Shown here piece by piece: positions 13,571 through 39,800 of a stretch of 64,000 nucleotides of DNA. Below the pieces are notes generated by a model. It did no database searches, was not told the origin of the DNA, and saw only the letters and a list, made by a program, of their open reading frames with translations. The stretch covers positions 47,926,001-47,990,000 of the forward strand of contig OZ024740.1 in NCBI GenBank assembly GCA_964016885.1, in the 5' to 3' direction. The position numbers were made by a program, and so were the translations under genes. This DNA comes from Eledone cirrhosa (lineage: Eukaryota). The stretch's first letter is position 1. Each line of letters starts with the position of its first letter.

Positions 13571-13636
<66 letters not shown>

Positions 13637-13641
<5 letters not shown>

Positions 13642-14441
13642 AGCGGAGCAAGCGGTTATCAAACAATTCTCTAAATAAATTAAAAAACGATTTAAATAAT
13701 CACCTGTTCTATTGCTGTTACCGACGGTTTCACCATTCCAAAAATTGGAAATCCAGAGAATTTCCAATGGAAAGAAATGGATCTTCAGACAGCTTATTTC
13801 CATACTATAAGGTTGCCAGCCTTACAGTAAGTAAATATTTCGCTTCCTGCCCAACGCATGCGGTCAAGCCGTTAAAATGACACACACGCAAAATCAGGTC
13901 GCAGATAATAGCTGTTTATTATAAACGTGTTGATATTGCCACTAAAATTAGCAGCATTATTCAACGTTTTGTTCTCTACATAAGGAGAAAAATTATATAG
14001 AGAACAAAACGTTGAATAATGCTGCTAATTTTAGTGGCAATATCAACACGTTTATAATAAACAACTATTATCTGCGACCTGATTTTGCGTGTGTGTCATT
14101 TTAACGGCTTGACCGCATGCGTTGGGCAGGAAGCGAAATATTTACTTACTGTAAGGCTGGCAACCTTATAGTATGGAAATAAGCTGTCTGAAGATCCATT
14201 TCTTTCCATTGGAAATTCTCTGGATTTCCAATTTCTGGAATGGTGAAACCGTCGGTAACAGCAATAGAACAGGTGATTATTTAAATCGTTTTTTAATTTA
14301 TTTAGAGAATTGTTTGATAACCGCTTGCTCCGCTCTTTTTATATTGTTCTGGTATCTCAAATTAGTACCATCGAACCACAAATATTATAAACACCTTGCA
14401 TATTTCTACAAGTACTTAGTGCCTGTTGAGGTATTCATCCA

Positions 14442-14509: not shown

Positions 14510-14514
<5 letters not shown>

Positions 14515-15506
14515 GTGTTTTGCAACGGGTCACTTTGTGGCTCAATAAAGAGTTAATAAATTAAATAATCACAGCTATATATCATAAAACATGTCTATAG
14601 AATCACCAGATAAAATATATACCATTTCCTCTCCCAATTAGCATAATTAACCATATAAAAAATCGATTAGACCAAGCTAAAGGCTTCTATGAAGAAATCT
14701 CCGACAAATAACCGAAAGCAGCCCTTCGCGTCAGTTGCAACGGAATATTTATCGAGTATTTCGACAGCTTGTATGAATCGCCCAGATATACAGTCAATTA
14801 AACAGAATTAGGTGGAAAATAAACTAGAAGAAAAGTGAACACATTTAGTTACCGCTACCATGGTTTCGCCCGCATTTTAAGATATCCGATAGCATTGGAC
14901 ACCTAGAGCACTGGACTCTTCAGGAAGTTAGCTCAAATTTAGACAATAAGTTTTCCAAAGTGATCGCGCCAAGAATACATTCAAAAATGGCTAAGAATCG
15001 TGACGTAGCAGCGGTCAGGTTAGAAAGGATGTGAATAGTTGCTTACGGCTGGTGGCTTTTTGCTAGAAAGCGCAGCACAATACAGCCAAAATTTTATCTC
15101 AACCTTACGGGAGATTATTATATCACTTTGGAAAACTTATTGTCTAAATTTGAGCTAACTTCCTGAAGAGTCCGGTGCTCTAGGTGTCCAATGCTATCGG
15201 ATATCTTAAAATGCGGACGAAACCATGGTAGAGGTAACTAAATGTGTTCACTTTTCTCCTAGTTTATTTTACACCTAATTCTATTTGACTGTATATCTGG
15301 GCGATTCATACAAGCTGTCGAAATACTCGATAAATATTCCGTCGCAACCGCCGCGAAGGGCTGCTTTCGGTTATTTGTCGTAGATTTCTTCATAGAAGCC
15401 TTTATTCTTATAGCTTGGTCTAATCGATTTTTTTATATGGTTAATTATGCTAATTGGGAGAGGAAATGATATATATTTTATCTGGTGATTCTATAGACAT
15501 GTTTTA

Positions 15507-15510
<4 letters not shown>
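14510..15510. mobile_element. Fold-back HHR element, family A copy 1
   Basis: 14577-14965 is inverted at 15122-15510; flanked by (TA)n; homologous to 16027-17228 and 38711-39800. Confidence 0.9.
15158..15235 (+). ncRNA. Type I hammerhead ribozyme, canonical core, long loop II (mirror copy ~14850-14930 on minus)
   Basis: acttc-CTGAAGA-gtccg..cggac-GAAA-CCATGG-TA-gaggt. Confidence 0.88.
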
Positions 15511-15564
<54 letters not shown>

Positions 15565-15686
15565 TTTTCCGTTTATCGTTTTCGGTGCACCCGGCCGATT
15601 AACCCACTCGATATGCAAATTGAGCTACTCAGCTGTTAATATGCATAAGGTAAGTATATACGTTCAACAATCTGGCAGGAAGGCAT

Positions 15687-15729
15687 ACGTTGCTGACGAT
15701 AGCTAATAAGCTTGAAACTAGTACAGCGT
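15687..15729 (+). ncRNA. Minimal type I hammerhead ribozyme
   Basis: acgttg-CTGACGA-t-agct aata agct-t-GAAA-CTAG-TA-cagcgt; palindromic stem III ACTAGT. Confidence 0.85.
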
Positions 15730-15990
15730 TCCTTTGTCAGTGTTGAACAAACGAGCAACGATGGTTGCTGGACACTACGGCTTAATACGGGATGTTTGTT
15801 TACAAACACACCGAGCATTATAATAAATGTTCGGTGAATCCATACGTACATATATATATGTGTGCATGTATGTATATACATATACATACTACTGTACATC
15901 TGTATACATATATGTATGTACATTTACATACTTATATTTAAGTAACAGCCGTACTAAGAGTGGGAAATGAAATTTCTTTTCATTTTTTCC

Positions 15991-16026
<36 letters not shown>

Positions 16027-16030
<4 letters not shown>

Positions 16031-17222
16031 TAAATAATGTCTTTAGAATCATCAGATATTAAAATATATACTATTTCTTCTTCTAATTAGCATAATTAAC
16101 CATATACAAAATCAAATCTAGCAAGCTTTAAGAATAAATTTTCTTATGGGGAAATCTCTGACAAACAATCGATCGTAGCCTCTTCGCGGCAGCCCCGTTC
16201 CATTATTTATCGAACATTTCGACAGCATGTAGACTCCGACTAAATATACCATCAACCACACACAATTAGTAGTAAAATTAAACTTAGAAGAAATGCGCAC
16301 ATACCGTAATTATATCTCTACCGTAGTTTCTTCCTTATTTAGGACATCCAAAATAATATGAATTTCCAGAGTTAGGTTTCATAAGGAGATAAACTCAAAA
16401 TCAGACATTTAGTCTTTCAATCCGATCCCGCCAAATTTAGATTCAAAAATGGCTAAAAATCGCTATGTAGCTGTGTTCCAGTCAGAGAGAAAGAGTGTGA
16501 TTGGTTGCTTACGGCGGGTAGGCTTGCTGCTAGAAAGCGCAGCCATATATCGCCAAATTTAATCTCAACCAATTGGGAGATTATTAAATATAAAGGTTAT
16601 CATATACATAAAATTAAAGATATATATATGTTGCAACTGTTCACTTTTAAGCTCTATGAAGAATTAATACAGCTACATAGCGATTTTTAGCCATTTTTGA
16701 ATCTAAATTTGGCGGGATCGGATTGAAAAACTAAATGTCTGATTTTGAGTTTATCTCCTGATGAAACCTAACTCTGGAAATTCATATTATTTGGTTGTCC
16801 TAAATAAGGAAGAAACCATGGTAGAGATATAATTACGGTATGTGCGCATTTCTTCTAAGTTTAATTTTACTACTAATTGTGTGTGGTTGATGGTATATTT
16901 AGTCGGAGTCTACATGCTGTCGAAATGTTCGATAAATAATGGAACGGGGCTGCCGCGAAGAGGCTACGATCGATTGTTTGTCAGAGATTTCCCCATAAGA
17001 AAATTTATTCTTAAAGCTTGCTAGATTTGATTTTGTATATGGTTAATTATGCTAATTAGAAGAAGAAATAGTATATATTTTAATATCTGATGATTCTAAA
17101 GACATGATTTATGATATAATGCTCTGATTTTTTGATTTTAATTTATTAATTCTTCATAGAGCTTAAAAGTGAACAGTTGCAACATATATATATCTTTAAT
17201 TTTATGTATATGATAACCTTTA

Positions 17223-17228
<6 letters not shown>
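16027..17228. mobile_element. Fold-back HHR element, family A copy 2
   Basis: 16027-16473 is inverted at 16669-17115; HHR at 16752-16829 (tatctc-CTGATGA..GAAA-CCATGG-TA-gagata, weak stem II); 16583-16668 is the reverse complement of 17143-17228. Confidence 0.9.
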
Positions 17229-17304
<76 letters not shown>

Positions 17305-25704: not shown

Positions 25705-25708
<4 letters not shown>

Positions 25709-25960
25709 GTAGAACACTGGAAGGTAATATCCGTAGTGGTAGAGGACTCAGTCCATGGGACGAGTTAGGTAGAAGTGGTTACACAACAGTTAGTTCACCA
25801 TCCCGAGAACAATTGTTTCACCTAAGCGGATCCTCAGCTCGTAATGGACATGGTTATACGGAACTGTTCCGTATAACCATGTCCATTACGAGCTGAGGAT
25901 CCGCTTAGGTGAAACAATTGTTCTCGGTATGGTGAACTAACTGTTGTGTAACCACTTCTA
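25705..25960. mobile_element. Fold-back HHR element: 191-bp palindrome (25770-25960, centre 25865) plus tail
   Basis: Almost perfect palindrome with a 1-nt centre, between (TA)n tracts. Confidence 0.92.
25883..25932 (+). ncRNA. Type I hammerhead ribozyme (mirror copy at ~25798-25847 on minus)
   Basis: ccat-ta-cgag-CTGAGGA-t-cc gctta gg-t-GAAA-CAATTG-TT-ctcg-gt-atgg. Confidence 0.8.
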
Positions 25961-26176
25961 TATATATATATATAGATATAAGTATTGAAATTTCCGTTGA
26001 AAATTGAAAAAGTCATAGGACTGAAGAGTGCTCTATGTAAGTTACAGAGCTAAATTTAATGTATAATAAACAATACAATATAATTACTTCATTACGCGTT
26101 TCTTGTATTCGTCTTATTCGGGAAATCTCTGATAATGAGGTAATTATATTGTATTGTTTATTATACATTATATAAT

Positions 26177-28549
26177 AACACAAAAGCCTTCCCTAGTGAG
26201 GAATGTACATCCCAACATAGCTTAGTTGTCAGCGACCTCACGGTCAGAACTAGACGAGCCCTGAAACAGAGGCCAACCTGGAGAAGAAAGATCTGGAAGC
26301 TGAAAGTCCCCTCAACCAGTAACAGATTTAAAGATATTTTACTCAACGCCTACGACAGTAAAGAAGAACAGATAGAGACATTTAACGTAGAAGAGAACTG
26401 GGAGTTCCTAAAAAATAACTTACTAGAGGCGACGGATGAGGTTTGTGGCTGGAGTAAGACCTCAAGCAGGAGGAGAGTGACTTGGTGGTGGAACAATAAG
26501 GTAGATGAAGCAGTCAAGGCCAAGAGACAGGCATGGAAAGAATGGAAGAACGGGGGGAGCAGGGTACATTACATAGAGACCAAGAGGGAAGCTAGGCGAC
26601 AAGTATACTTAGCTAGGAGGGAAGCAGAGGATAGAAAATTCAAGCATGTTTTACAACGTGAGGACCAGAAACAGGAGGTATTCAAGATTGCGAGGCAGTG
26701 TGTCAGAGATAGTTGTGATGTCATTGGAGAGAAGTGTATCCGGAATGATAAAGGTGAGCTTGCCCTCACAAGTGCTGAGAAGAAAGATGCATGGAAGAGT
26801 CATTATGATAGATTACTAAATGAGGAGAATGCATGGGAAGAAGAGACCCTACCCCACGTAGACCCTATAGAGGGACCAGCAGTACAAGTCAGCGGCAGCG
26901 TAGTAAGTAAGGCAATCAGAGATATGAAGATAGGGAAGGCAACCGGTCCATCGGGTATAGCTGCCGAGATGCTGAAGGCATCTGGGTCTGTAGGTCACAC
27001 TATAACCACACGTATCGTTAACCAGGTAATACTAGAGGGGGCCATACCAAAAGATTGGTGCAGTAGCATCATTGTCAACTGCTACAAAGGTAAAGGCGAT
27101 GCACTAGATAGAGGAAACTATAGAGGTATAAAGTTGATGGACCAGGTCATGAAAGTAACAGAAAGAGTTATAGCACAGCTGATTAGGGACCGGGTGAATA
27201 TAGACGAGATGCAATTTGGGTTTGTACCAGGGAAAGGCACCACTGATGCGCTCTTCCTTGTGAGGCAATTACAGGAAAAGTACCTAGCTAAAAGTAAGCC
27301 ACTCTACTTGGCATTTGTCGACCTTGAGAAAGCCTTTGACAGAGTTCCACGTGCAGTAATCTGGTGGGCTCTTAGAAAACTAGGAGTAGATGAATGGCTT
27401 GTGAAAGCGGTACAAGCCATGTATAGGGGAGCAGTCAGCAAAGTTAGGATTGGCAATGAGTATAGCGAGGAATTTAGCGTACAGGTTGGGGTCCACCAGG
27501 GCTCTGTTCTTAGCCCTCTCCTGTTCATCATAGTCCTGCAGGCAATAACGGAGGAGTTTAAGACCGGATGCCCATGGGAACTCCTGTATGCTGATGACCT
27601 CGCACTCATAGCTGAATCTATGGTAGAACTAGAGAATAAATTCCAAACCTGGAAGCAGGGACTAGAGAGAAAGGGCCTCAAAGTCAACATGACAAAGACT
27701 AAGGTCCTTATAAGTAGACGAGAAAACAGAACCCAGATCCCCTCAGGGAAATGGCCTTGCTCAGTATGTAGGAAAGGTGTAGGTAGGAACTCCATTCTTT
27801 GCCCCAAATGCAAACAATGGGTACACAAGAGATGTAGCGGGATCTCAGGAAGCTTAATTAAGAATGTAGGATTCACATGCAGCAGCTGTGCTGAAACAGC
27901 AAGCAAACAGCCACAGGAAACAAGTACCACCAATCTCTGGGAGGGCCCTGTAGAAACAGTAGACAGCTTCTGCTACCTAGGTGACCGAATTAGCAACGGA
28001 GGTGGGTGCTCAGAAAGTACAATAACTAGGGTAAGAACGGGATGGAAGAAGTTTAGGGAACTACTACCACTGCTAGCTGCAAAAGGCTTCTCCCTCAGAA
28101 TGAAAGGCAGACTGTATGATGCGTGTATCCGAACAGCGATGTTGCATGGTAGTGAGACCTGGGCGCTGAAGGTGGAAGACTTACGTAGATTAGAGAGAAA
28201 CGAAGCCTGCATGCTCCGATGGATGTGTAACAGTAATATACGTGAACGACAAAGCATAAATGAATTGAGAGAGAGACTGAGCATAAGAGGAATCAAATGC
28301 TGCGTGCAGGAGAGGCGGTTACGCTGGTATGGACATGTGATGCGTATGAAGGATGACAGCTGCATAAAAAGGTGCAGAGCACTAGAAGTTGATGGAAACC
28401 GCGGAGTGGGGAGACCCAAGATGACTTGGGATGAGGTGATAAAAGCCGACCTTACCCAACTACACCTCTCAAAGTCAATGACACACGACCGTGACTTCTG
28501 GCGCCACGCAGTAATACAGGGTACCCGACCTCCCATGGGTACATGCTGA
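26177..28549 (+). CDS. RTE-clade LINE ORF (5'-truncated): end of APE endonuclease, reverse transcriptase, PHD-like Cys/His insert
   Basis: Frame is open from 26177 (EECTSQHSLVVSDL). Motifs NYRGIKL, QFGF, FVDLEKAFDRV, GVHQGSVLSPLLF, LLYADDL, YLG, RRLRWYGHV; no stops. Confidence 0.95.
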   Translation, partial: NTKAFPSEECTSQHSLVVSDLTVRTRRALKQRPTWRRKIWKLKVPSTSNRFKDILLNAYDSKEEQIETFNVEENWEFLKNNLLEATDEVCGWSKTSSRRRVTWWWNNKVDEAVKAKRQAWKEWKNGGSRVHYIETKREARRQVYLARREAEDRKFKHVLQREDQKQEVFKIARQCVRDSCDVIGEKCIRNDKGELALTSAEKKDAWKSHYDRLLNEENAWEEETLPHVDPIEGPAVQVSGSVVSKAIRDMKIGKATGPSGIAAEMLKASGSVGHTITTRIVNQVILEGAIPKDWCSSIIVNCYKGKGDALDRGNYRGIKLMDQVMKVTERVIAQLIRDRVNIDEMQFGFVPGKGTTDALFLVRQLQEKYLAKSKPLYLAFVDLEKAFDRVPRAVIWWALRKLGVDEWLVKAVQAMYRGAVSKVRIGNEYSEEFSVQVGVHQGSVLSPLLFIIVLQAITEEFKTGCPWELLYADDLALIAESMVELENKFQTWKQGLERKGLKVNMTKTKVLISRRENRTQIPSGKWPCSVCRKGVGRNSILCPKCKQWVHKRCSGISGSLIKNVGFTCSSCAETASKQPQETSTTNLWEGPVETVDSFCYLGDRISNGGGCSESTITRVRTGWKKFRELLPLLAAKGFSLRMKGRLYDACIRTAMLHGSETWALKVEDLRRLERNEACMLRWMCNSNIRERQSINELRERLSIRGIKCCVQERRLRWYGHVMRMKDDSCIKRCRALEVDGNRGVGRPKMTWDEVIKADLTQLHLSKSMTHDRDFWRHAVIQGTRPPMGTC

Positions 28550-36889: not shown

Positions 36890-37905
36890 AAATACTTATC
36901 AAGAGAAAATATCCTTAGAATTTAATCAACAATAGTATCCAAAAAGCAAGTCAAATCAATATCCAAACATTCCAAGAAACAAAAACAAGAAAAAGATCAT
37001 ACCATACATTTCAACTTTCAATCCAAAGAAGACAGAGTTATACACACAAATACAACTAAACTTAACTATCTTACTAAAGGACAAGAAAATTAAAAAAACA
37101 TCTGACAAAAACACCCAATCATAAAAAGTAAACAACAACCAAAATCACTAAAAGAGATATTAACAAATGCAAAACTGAAAATTATTACTAAAGAACCAGA
37201 ATTAAAAAGGAGCAATTGACCTCACTGCAGAGTATGCAACTATCTGTTAAAGGGCAATGAATTTAATTTCAAAGACAGTCTCATCTTTAAAATTGAAAAT
37301 GACTTCTCTTGCAACTCTCATATACATTATAACATATTAAAGCTGCTTAGAAAATTATATTGGGCAAACAGGCATTTCATTACAAAGACAAATGACAGTT
37401 CACCATCAACAAATCAGGGACTCAAACACCATATCCCTCTAAACCAACATATAGAGGAATTTTGAAGGCGAATTCTGCCAAATTTCCCTGTCTTCTCATT
37501 CTACCAGTATAGTGAAAATTTCATACAGGAAAACGTATTAAGAAAAGATTTTTGTAAATAAATTCCTATCAACTTTAAAAAAATTTATTAAAGAAAAAGC
37601 CTGCATTGCATCTTTTGTAATGAACCATATTCTCCTCAATATAAGCGACAAAAATAAAACTAATTGCGTCCCTTCTGTTCATCAAGAACACAAGTGACCA
37701 ATTATATGAGATAAACATAAATGAAAAACCATTTTTTGAAAGACTGTAATGAAAATCGTTTTGGAAAGGATGTAAACACAGCTGAAACGAATAAAAGTAA
37801 ACAAAAACATAAATAATTATCAAATTACTTGACACATGAATACAAAAACTTTTTAAATAACCAAAAGGTCAGTCATTGCATTTTGAAACCCTATTATCCC
37901 AATAT
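36890..37905 (+). mobile_element. Decayed Penelope-like (Neptune-type) 3' fragment
   Basis: PHCRVCNYL; NDFSCNS; ENYIGQTGISLQRQMTVHHQQIRD (GIY-YIG). Confidence 0.7.
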
Positions 37906-38710: not shown

Positions 38711-39800
38711 ATTCATAGGGATATATATATATATATATATATATATTTAGACAGTCATAGATACATATGAGTGTGGCTACTTTTCACGGTGTGGCTCAAT
38801 GAAAAAATTAAGCAAATAATTATTAATCAGAGCTATATAAAATTGTAAGTTTGAAGAACAGTCAGATAAAATATACCCAATTTTTCTTCTCCCTAGTCCG
38901 TAGAAATTAACTAGATAAATAATCATTTAAACGGAGCTAAGTTTAAAATATAACTTCGAAGAAATAACAGATAAATGATACAGACTATCCCCCACGAGAA
39001 ATAGTCAGATAAAATTTACCCAGTCTTTCTGCTTAGCTCGTAGAAATTAACTAGACAAATAATCAATTAAACGGAACTAAGTCTAAAATGTAAGTTTGCA
39101 GAAAAAATGCATATAAACTTTACCAAAATTCTTCCAGTCCCAACTATCAATACTTTCATTCGTACTTTGTGGATATGTCCAATCCTGGTATTATCCATGA
39201 GGTTTCGAGCTTATCAAGTTAGGACTAAAATTTCTACAATGAACGCTGGCAGAAATGAATTCAAAATGGGTAAGAATTATCACGTGGCCAGCAGTCAAAG
39301 TAGAAGGTTGTGAATGGCAGGTAGGTTGGCTGCTAGAAAGAACAGTTAGATACCACCTAAGGTTTACTCGACCAAACAGGAGTATAGAATACATTCATAG
39401 GGATATATATGTATGGTTAGAGCATTGGCTTTGCAATCGAAAGATTGTGAGTTCAATTCTCAGACCGGGTGATGTGTTGTTTCCTTGAGCAAGACACTTT
39501 ATTTCACATTGCTCCAGTTTACTCAGCTGTAGAAATGAGATGATAGGGACTGGGGTCCCTATCATACCACTGCAAAGTGGTCGTGGAGGTGCCATGGCAA
39601 AAAAGCACCCAGTACTCACTGTAAATGAGGTTGGTGTTAGGAAGGGCATCCAGCTGTAGAAATCAAGCCAGCATCAGTTCCCGTCCCACCCTTGCAAGCA
39701 GGGAAAAAGCAGACGTAAAATGAAATGATGAAATGATGATATTTAGACATAGTCACAGATACATATGAGTGTGGCTACCTTTCACGGTGTGGCTCAATAT
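38711..39800 (-). mobile_element. Family A HHR element, old copy 3, partially tandem, with a SINE insertion
   Basis: Homology to 14510-15120; 38711-38800 recurs at 39393-39410 + 39740-39800; degenerate HHR at ~39135-39225. Confidence 0.65.
39411..39740 (+). mobile_element. CORE-like/RTE-tail SINE
   Basis: Matches 36197-36532. Confidence 0.88.

Follow-up and report, generated by a model that had tools for sequence, protein, structure and literature searches.

A tail-to-head junction in a hammerhead-bearing repeat family of Eledone cirrhosa and its bearing on a circular or multimeric template for Penelope-like insertion

The insertion at positions 16024-17228 of the window, i.e. the whole stretch of 64,000 nucleotides of Eledone cirrhosa DNA that was analyzed, belongs to a large family of ORF-less units of roughly 670 nt that very probably represents a non-LTR retrozyme mobilized by Penelope-like elements (PLEs). 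The layout of the locus is the insertion footprint of a PLE, i.e. an inverted 5′-truncated arm together with a one-sided tail, which was overlooked in the earlier note on this DNA. Apart from 3′-end similarity to an autonomous PLE, for which no match was obtained among the PLEs sampled, the family displays every feature of non-LTR retrozymes and of non-autonomous PLEs that was tested at the sequence level, with cleavage and circle formation being predicted. On its own, it is an ordinary member of a described class. For the complete route by which its copies may arise, i.e. copying in trans by a PLE from an RNA circle that was cut by its own ribozyme and ligated, we estimate a probability of about 0.55.

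The locus is a single insertion composed of two back-to-back arms with (TA)n tracts on both sides. Its parts and two related copies in the window are as follows:

15994-16023, unstranded: (TA)n target, left flank.
16024-16668, minus strand: left arm, 5′-truncated, with 98.2% identity to the right arm across 454 nt.
16319-16385, minus strand: left-arm hammerhead whose core is mutated (CUUAUGA) and whose stem III is altered, predicted to be inactive.
16575-16600, minus strand: tail-to-head junction, with the tail end at 16583 and the head start at 16582.
16666-17228, plus strand: right arm, a 5′-truncated single unit that ends at 3′ site 2 with the tail.
16752-16829, plus strand: type I hammerhead of the right arm, with the core CUGAUGA at 16758-16764 and GAAA at 16812-16815.
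16840-17076, plus strand: predicted rod-like hairpin of ~240 nt, its limits read by hand from alignment A3.
17111-17118, plus strand: 3′ site 1 (ATGATATA), the putative first internal start of reverse transcription, at which 62 of 115 arms end.
17119-17228, plus strand: optional tail of 110 nt that ends at 3′ site 2, with 40 of 115 arms ending in it or at its end.
17229-17302, unstranded: (TA)n target, right flank.
14511-15515: independent two-armed insertion of subfamily B with 72% identity, its minus arm running from ~15117 to 14511 and its plus arm from 15122 to 15515.
38772-39400, minus strand: decayed copy of the distant sister family C, a family that has 59% identity to B and a U3-A8 hammerhead core.

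On the minus strand, the 85-nt tail stretch passes unbroken into AATCTCCC at 16582 and continues to 16024. All 85 positions of 17144-17228 are identical to those of the reverse-complemented stretch 16585-16669. The direct passage of the tail into the unit head, as previously claimed for this locus, is thereby borne out. The left arm comprises the final 86 nt of one unit, the junction and 559 nt of the next unit, and it stops at 3′ site 1 without a tail. As the distance from the head to the first 3′ end amounts to 559 nt and the remainder to 110 nt, the unit measures 669 nt here, in agreement with the previously deduced monomer of ~670 nt with one hammerhead (a single core and a single GAAAC...GUA per unit). 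Natural tandem periods in close relatives of the window unit are 671-672 nt, and A-like tandems, i.e. those of subfamily A and close kin, have units of 657-672 nt. The claim that no ORF lies between tail and head likewise stands, with a longest stop-to-stop frame inside both units of a natural dimer of 77 aa; the GC content of the unit is 0.33-0.36. The locus itself contains no direct pair of hammerhead-bearing units and is predicted to be a dead end for further copying, because its two hammerheads oppose each other in strand and one core is broken.

Other readings of the earlier note require revision. Position 17143, taken there as the start of the tail, only mirrors the 5′-truncation point of the left arm, and the optional 3′ extension spans 17119-17228. 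The beginning of the neighboring copy near 15117, which was noted to coincide with the unit head, is a truncation coincidence. Among 72 heads in 74 position-ordered loci (see below), 69 have tail sequence upstream (68 by pattern and one more by eye), three start with the head and none follows an ORF. The head is thus no natural start of the unit, and its interpretation as a transcription start or jump point was rejected.

Searches over the 3.0-Gb genome yielded 1,842 exact matches for the junction pattern versus 2 for its reversed control, and 2,661 exact matches for the hammerhead motif pattern versus 1 for the control; since these counts far exceed those of the controls, neither junction nor hammerhead is due to chance. 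With the minus arm as query, 3,165 first-look candidates were obtained genome-wide, the best of which cross the junction with 92-98% identity, some of them in tandem at 671-672 nt. The first 100 of the 2,661 hammerhead matches, taken in position order, gave 81 stretches besides that of the window and a few obtained before and, after removal of 7 duplicate loci, 74 loci that were thus ascertained on the hammerhead motif and on one contig. All 74 belong to the family of the window. Clustering of 179 near-full units resulted in 11 clusters of four or more members that are at most 27% apart, with subfamily A, to which the window insertion belongs, being among the youngest (4.6% divergence within). 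The junction is common to subfamilies up to 27% apart. Subfamily B, whose insertion at 14511-15515 carries hammerhead cores at 15163-15169 (plus) and 14923-14917 (minus), has the same tail-to-head junction as A and forms tandems, too. The family is also present in three contig sets of one sample, in which molecule ends are not visible. Sister family C, with 2,836 candidates, exhibits the same tail-to-head, two-end tandem layout (loci L228-L247).

The earlier note had suggested to look for tandem arrays in the genome, and these were found, ranging from partial dimers to an array of 45 units that covers 29.6 kb (G000:C1:92985619-93016033; loci L221-L223, L226 and L227). Its short inverted arm ends at site 2 and its long arm at site 1. 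Blocks of 5 to 6 units diverge by 0-2%, with around half of the units being near-identical block copies, while the rest differ by ~5%. The near-identical blocks possibly result from duplication or from an assembly error. The array is compatible with long rolling copying or with growth at the DNA level, and it could supply linear multimers. As grounds against a tandem template, the earlier note had named copies that extend upstream into a PLE ORF and a junction unique to this locus. Neither was found, as the junction is family-wide and shared among subfamilies, arrays exist, and a broader profile applied to all loci revealed no PLE protein in the 700 nt that precede any of the 463 element hits (182 loci).

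The ends of the copies are polarized. Site 1 is the terminus of 62 of the 115 arms at the 74 loci, and a further 40 terminate at site 2 or in the microsatellite that immediately precedes it, so that both sites together account for 102 of 115; 12 arms have other ends and one is cut off at the locus edge. These two fixed 3′ ends lie ~110 nt apart, the 5′ ends are scattered, and 55 of the 115 arms are multi-unit. The 35 back-to-back pairs comprise 26 with one end of each kind, two with the same end twice and seven that were left unclassed; at even odds, the one-sided probability of 26 in 28 classifiable pairs is ~1.5e-6 (hand arithmetic). A (TA)n tract follows the great majority of 3′ ends among those listed, as an estimate rather than an exact count. 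This agrees with the footprint of PLEs described by Craig et al. (2021, PMC8557442), who report partial tandems, an inverted 5′-truncated copy, a one-sided tail and (TA)n targets; the window family likewise combines 5′-truncated partial tandems, an inverted arm, a one-sided tail and a (TA)n target. The same account includes non-autonomous Chlamys families with head-to-tail multicopy insertions, e.g. MRC1, and states that canonical hammerheads are absent from Naiad and Chlamys (PMC8557442). In contrast, the unit of the window family carries a hammerhead, its tail is longer than that of Chlamys and other endonuclease-bearing PLEs (110 nt versus 30-40 bp) and, unlike for the non-autonomous Chlamys elements, no 3′-end similarity to an autonomous family was found in the sampled PLEs.

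A biochemical precedent is provided by PAc, the Poseidon element of Anolis carolinensis, whose protein cleaves AT-rich DNA on both strands and for which two internal starts of reverse transcription bound the tail (Frangieh et al. 2024, PMC11167929). Similarly, two strands appear to be cut in the window family, and two putative internal starts downstream of the hammerhead bound the tail, with 3′ site 2 at the end of 17119-17228 as the probable second one. PAc differs in being autonomous and in that its starts are located ~90 nt past the cut, compared to 295 and 405 nt in the window family. Moreover, the PAc ribozyme is dispensable for insertion in vitro.

The footprint, along with the abundance of ORF-bearing PLEs in this genome, suggests mobilization in trans by a PLE RT-EN. 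The genome contains 10,596 GIY-YIG candidates, and ORF-bearing PLEs at L213, L214, L216 and L219, which had been chosen as opposed hit pairs, show the same two-end inverted layout. The same applies to a young PLE family, referred to as family P, with 32,203 candidates and frames of up to 1,167 aa. Some PLE frames with a Zn-finger-like linker were read as Neptune-type on the basis of the published description. No sequence shared with an autonomous PLE was detected in 50 GIY-YIG stretches, in 8 long family-P stretches or in any of the locus flanks; the 50 stretches (30 top and 20 long-frame ones from 150 listed among the 10,596) represent a small sample of the non-Naiad PLE families of the genome. 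None of the sampled PLEs shares the unit sequence, and the driver PLE is a putative one.

Several individual PLE sequences are worth mentioning. Family P is represented at L213:2688-6188 (plus) by a very young and abundant element with a 1,167-aa frame, a hammerhead in the 3′ end and a 56-nt tail, and the window holds a 3′ end at 60167-60427 (minus) with 66% similarity to that of family P. At L024:1169-2219 (minus), a subfamily A arm stops ~11 nt before site 1 and abuts the endonuclease-coding 3′ part of a family P element; this join, a single case, is situated wholly between TA tracts and possibly reflects nested insertion or a switch of template by a single enzyme. At L198:3851-4816 and L090:2190-3008 (plus), the TA tract immediately downstream of subfamily B tails contains 5′-truncated PLE frames of another clade in the same orientation, which were read as nested insertions. 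The window further contains a decayed PLE endonuclease remnant at 37094-37549 (plus; 34% identity to the frame at L109). An 801-aa frame at 26144-28549 (plus) was dismissed as a partner, as it encodes a reverse transcriptase and a PHD finger without a GIY-YIG domain; it is presumably a 5′-truncated LINE of the RTE type.

Each unit comprises CUGA(U/A)GA, a stem II region of 47-59 nt, GAAA and the cut triplet GUA, with a stem III of 2 bp closed by the palindrome CAUG. In the hammerhead of the right arm, GAAAC...GUA is located at 16812-16823, the 2-bp stem III is palindromic and cleavage is predicted after 16823, and its long stem II has two A.A mismatches at the base. In the subfamily B copy, the corresponding GUA site ends at 15230. 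Of 89 units ascertained by similarity, 67 agree with the motif in both core and stems; at the Rfam gathering threshold, no hammerhead match was obtained in the window. Among 14 subfamily representatives, 6 of 19 pairs of the hammerhead fold display two-sided changes, with a covariation score of 0.274 versus 0.163 for shuffled alignments (0/500) and at most 0.10 for slid controls. Judging from these substitution patterns, the ribozyme appears to be under selection. In subfamily A, an A.A mismatch replaces the first pair of stem II in 42 of the 44 matched copies and the second pair in 31 of them, so that this subfamily has spread with a weak ribozyme. The rod of ~240 nt has 97.5% of cells paired and four two-sided pairs across subfamilies, although the controls favor the rod because the structure was derived from the same alignment. 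G-U pairs are numerous in the covariation of both rod and hammerhead. Folding of single sequences gave weak evidence, with z = -2.07 for the monomer (20 shuffles) and z = -0.3 and -0.7 for hammerhead fragments. In alignment A3, RNAalifold pairs the head (columns 5-19; 16568-16582, minus strand) with the strand bearing the cut site (columns 271-285; 16814-16828). According to this model, such a helix would block the active hammerhead fold. Its pairs are mostly invariant or differ by G-U changes, and it did not form when single A and B units were folded as circles.

In family C, 12 of 20 loci are matched by the census pattern, and all 12 read U3 and A8, most of them with intact stems. These hammerheads mostly possess a 6-bp stem I, a stem II of 4-5 bp and, preceding GUC, a stem III that is palindromic and longer; their 3′ half gave 90 exact matches versus 0 for the control. 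By its sequence, the U3-A8 core qualifies as a compensatory core pair, a covariation that is natural and active according to Perreault et al. (PMC3088659). Near 39740-39797, a piece of a family C tail was observed, with another repeat lying between tail and head.

With regard to the template, none of the 115 arms has its 5′ end within 8 nt of the cut site, while a second hammerhead site is crossed by 12 of 55 multi-unit arms and two or more sites by 13 of 115 arms. Hence, the template is not a cut linear monomer with run-off, and the lack of 5′ ends at the cut site leaves either a circle or an uncut multimer. The earlier proposal of a tandem or circular non-coding template is sustained over that of a solo pseudo-LTR (pLTR) by the family-wide junction, the arrays and the lack of ORFs upstream of the 463 element hits; this support does not extend to the circle itself, as an uncut read-through multimer would be equally expected to yield a tail-to-head junction.

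Sequence variants are informative in this respect. Unit positions above 600 (microsatellite) were excluded from the counts, as was alignment A2, in which L111 is misaligned, and the duplicates L013, L015, L029, L069, L078, L086 and L061 were left out. Alleles found in two pieces only (n=219) fall into the same direct tandem in 14 cases versus 0.45 expected and into inverted arms in 10 cases versus 0.49. Two-piece alleles thus cluster within insertions, and both arms as well as successive units derive from one source. In 30 insertions with at least three overlapping units, eight derived variants are present in all units of both arms (in eight insertions), 14 are shared by a subset (nine across arms, four of them in L160, and five within an arm) and 128 are single. 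Variants in all units are the prediction of a circle, whereas subset variants are predicted by a mixed multimer or by later gene conversion. In L196, one such variant tags the upstream unit in each of the two arms, as would be expected from a heterogeneous multimer template. Overall, the shared variants lean towards the circle, but they are mixed. The distance within insertions (0.032) is not below that to the nearest foreign copy (0.028) and does not discriminate. No overall strand bias indicative of RNA editing was found (A>G 5.10 versus T>C 5.17 per 1,000). Among shared alleles, A>G is modestly enriched (9/61 versus 24/372; 12/59 versus 20/322), an excess that was given little weight because the pair counts are not independent.

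In the route that we favor, a source locus with two hammerheads in direct tandem would be transcribed, and the hammerheads would excise one unit, the 2-bp palindromic stem III probably favoring a dimer. The excised unit may then be closed by a host ligase, in analogy to axolotl and mussel retrozymes. By reference to PAc, a PLE protein would cut both strands of a (TA)n target, as visible in the footprint, and prime each strand at its own internal site, the two sites being separated by 110 nt. Each cDNA would extend back across the junction and past the hammerhead site to halt at a random point, before joining of the two cDNA 5′ ends would afford the back-to-back arms, the last two steps likewise being reflected in the footprint. 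Several observations speak against this sequence of events, i.e. the 14 subset-only variants including the multimer-like one in L196, the spread of the youngest subfamily A with a weak ribozyme, the 45-unit array as a conceivable supply of linear multimers, the lack of unit sequence in the sampled ORF-bearing PLEs and the within-insertion distance that is not below the nearest-foreign distance. In addition, the anole PLE inserted in vitro without ribozyme cleavage (PMC11167929), and 8 of 9 Xenopus retrozyme dimers were reported as uncleaved in vitro (Li, Clavereau, Pollet 2026, bioRxiv 10.64898/2026.07.22.740005).

A rival explanation is PLE-driven insertion from an uncut linear read-through transcript of tandem source loci, with the hammerhead as a relic or serving another role and with units being homogenized at the DNA level. 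Such a scenario is a serious candidate, even though we would not expect it to be correct. It is in line with the 29.6-kb array, whose blocks of 0-2% divergence point to DNA-level duplication (or assembly over-expansion), with the excess of subset-shared (14) over all-unit (8) variants, with the weak stem II base of subfamily A and with the use of unprocessed RNA by PAc in vitro (PMC11167929). In three-way comparisons, the deviating unit is also slightly more frequently the upstream one (133 versus 100 versus 104, with the misaligned L089 dropped), but this excess is small (chi-square ~5.8 on 2 df, hand arithmetic) and driven by L199. The uncut transcript is further opposed by a hammerhead fold that is kept through compensatory changes, including the core pair of family C, and by the spread of new variants to all units on both arms in small insertions, which requires a bottleneck at the monomer level.

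Alternatively, the copies could be truncated pLTRs of an autonomous PLE yet to be found, with the junction arising by a template jump from the RNA 5′ end to site 2. The coincidence of site 2 with the junction would suit this idea, as would the many PLE families in the genome of which few were sampled (50 stretches from 10,596 GIY-YIG candidates). It is nevertheless improbable, since the junction sequence is clean and subfamily-specific and hence templated, heads are no hotspot of 5′ ends (3/72), and the 463 element hits have 0 ORFs within 700 nt upstream. Even more remote is a DNA-level repeat, such as a satellite or foldback element, that spread without an RNA step. The palindromic look and the block duplications in the 45-unit array may evoke it, yet it is largely refuted by the polarity of the ends, with fixed 3′ and scattered 5′ ends, lacks fixed terminal inverted repeats and is at odds with the RNA-type covariation that features many G-U pairs in rod and hammerhead.

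Compared to metazoan non-LTR retrozymes, the family shares ORF-less tandem units of 33-36% GC with one type I hammerhead, a short palindromic stem III, an occurrence from dimers to multimers and a length within the reported range. The latter is given as 51-972 bp, with a mean of 650 bp in ray-finned fishes (Li et al. 2026, bioRxiv 10.64898/2026.07.22.740005), so that the impression that the unit is unusually long for animal non-LTR retrozymes applies solely to the experimentally shown circles. These measure ~170-400 nt, and cleavage was dimer-dependent in axolotl (Cervera and de la Pena 2020, PMC7229834). The window family has a longer unit than these circles, with its own cleavage and circle being predicted. 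It further deviates from metazoan non-LTR retrozymes by a stem II of 47-59 nt and by mostly short two-armed insertions with fixed 3′ ends. A PLE origin of retrozymes has been argued (Li et al. 2026), and 21 PLE matches are reported for the Xenopus retrozymes, whereas the stretches sampled here revealed no autonomous PLE with pLTR homology to the window family. Circles were proposed as templates of PLE tandems already in 2014 (Cervera and de la Pena, PMC4209133). The hammerheads considered in that work resemble the present one in being type I and in having a small palindromic helix III that depends on dimer formation; yet, the proposal was made for ORF-bearing PLEs, while the window family is ORF-less.

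A more far-reaching and speculative interpretation, which we hold to be rather unlikely, is that the family consists of long-lived circular RNA parasites of ~670 nt that are selected as RNA, with one PLE enzyme dimer starting at two internal sites of a single circle and copying it into both strands of a break. It would build on the core-swapped hammerhead, the 240-nt rod and the predicted helix between head and cut site that might silence the ribozyme in the circle. Primary sequence would no longer be shared with any autonomous PLE, so that recognition would then depend on structure. If true, the family would offer a compact donor with which rolling-circle reverse transcription by PLEs could be proven. 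Irrespective of this, the family bears on the role of the hammerhead in PLEs and on the origin of tandem and inverted insertions. It provides test material in the form of a donor of 670 nt, dated insertions in the thousands and natural ribozymes of strong, weak and core-swapped type; since all of these are united in one family, the question becomes testable by simple RNA assays.

The window harbors additional repeats. A further element with a hammerhead-like motif at 15688 is located at 15562-15980 between the two insertions, and a similar motif occurs twice in L101, 511 nt apart. A small palindromic (TA)n insertion at 25706-25959 carries a different hammerhead-like motif in either orientation, at 25842 (minus) and 25888 (plus). 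The sole Rfam match, Plastid-psbJ-2 at 61602-61761, was judged spurious, resting on a TA tract and a hairpin, and a sigma-70 scan was set aside as having no bearing on an animal repeat. The long perfect hairpin at 61602-61761 beside the TA tract is likely a small foldback element, and its ends recur beside TA tracts at several loci. Finally, 13632-14344 forms a 352-nt inverted repeat (99% complementary, 9-nt center) between TA tracts, and related sequence flanks a PLE in L092.
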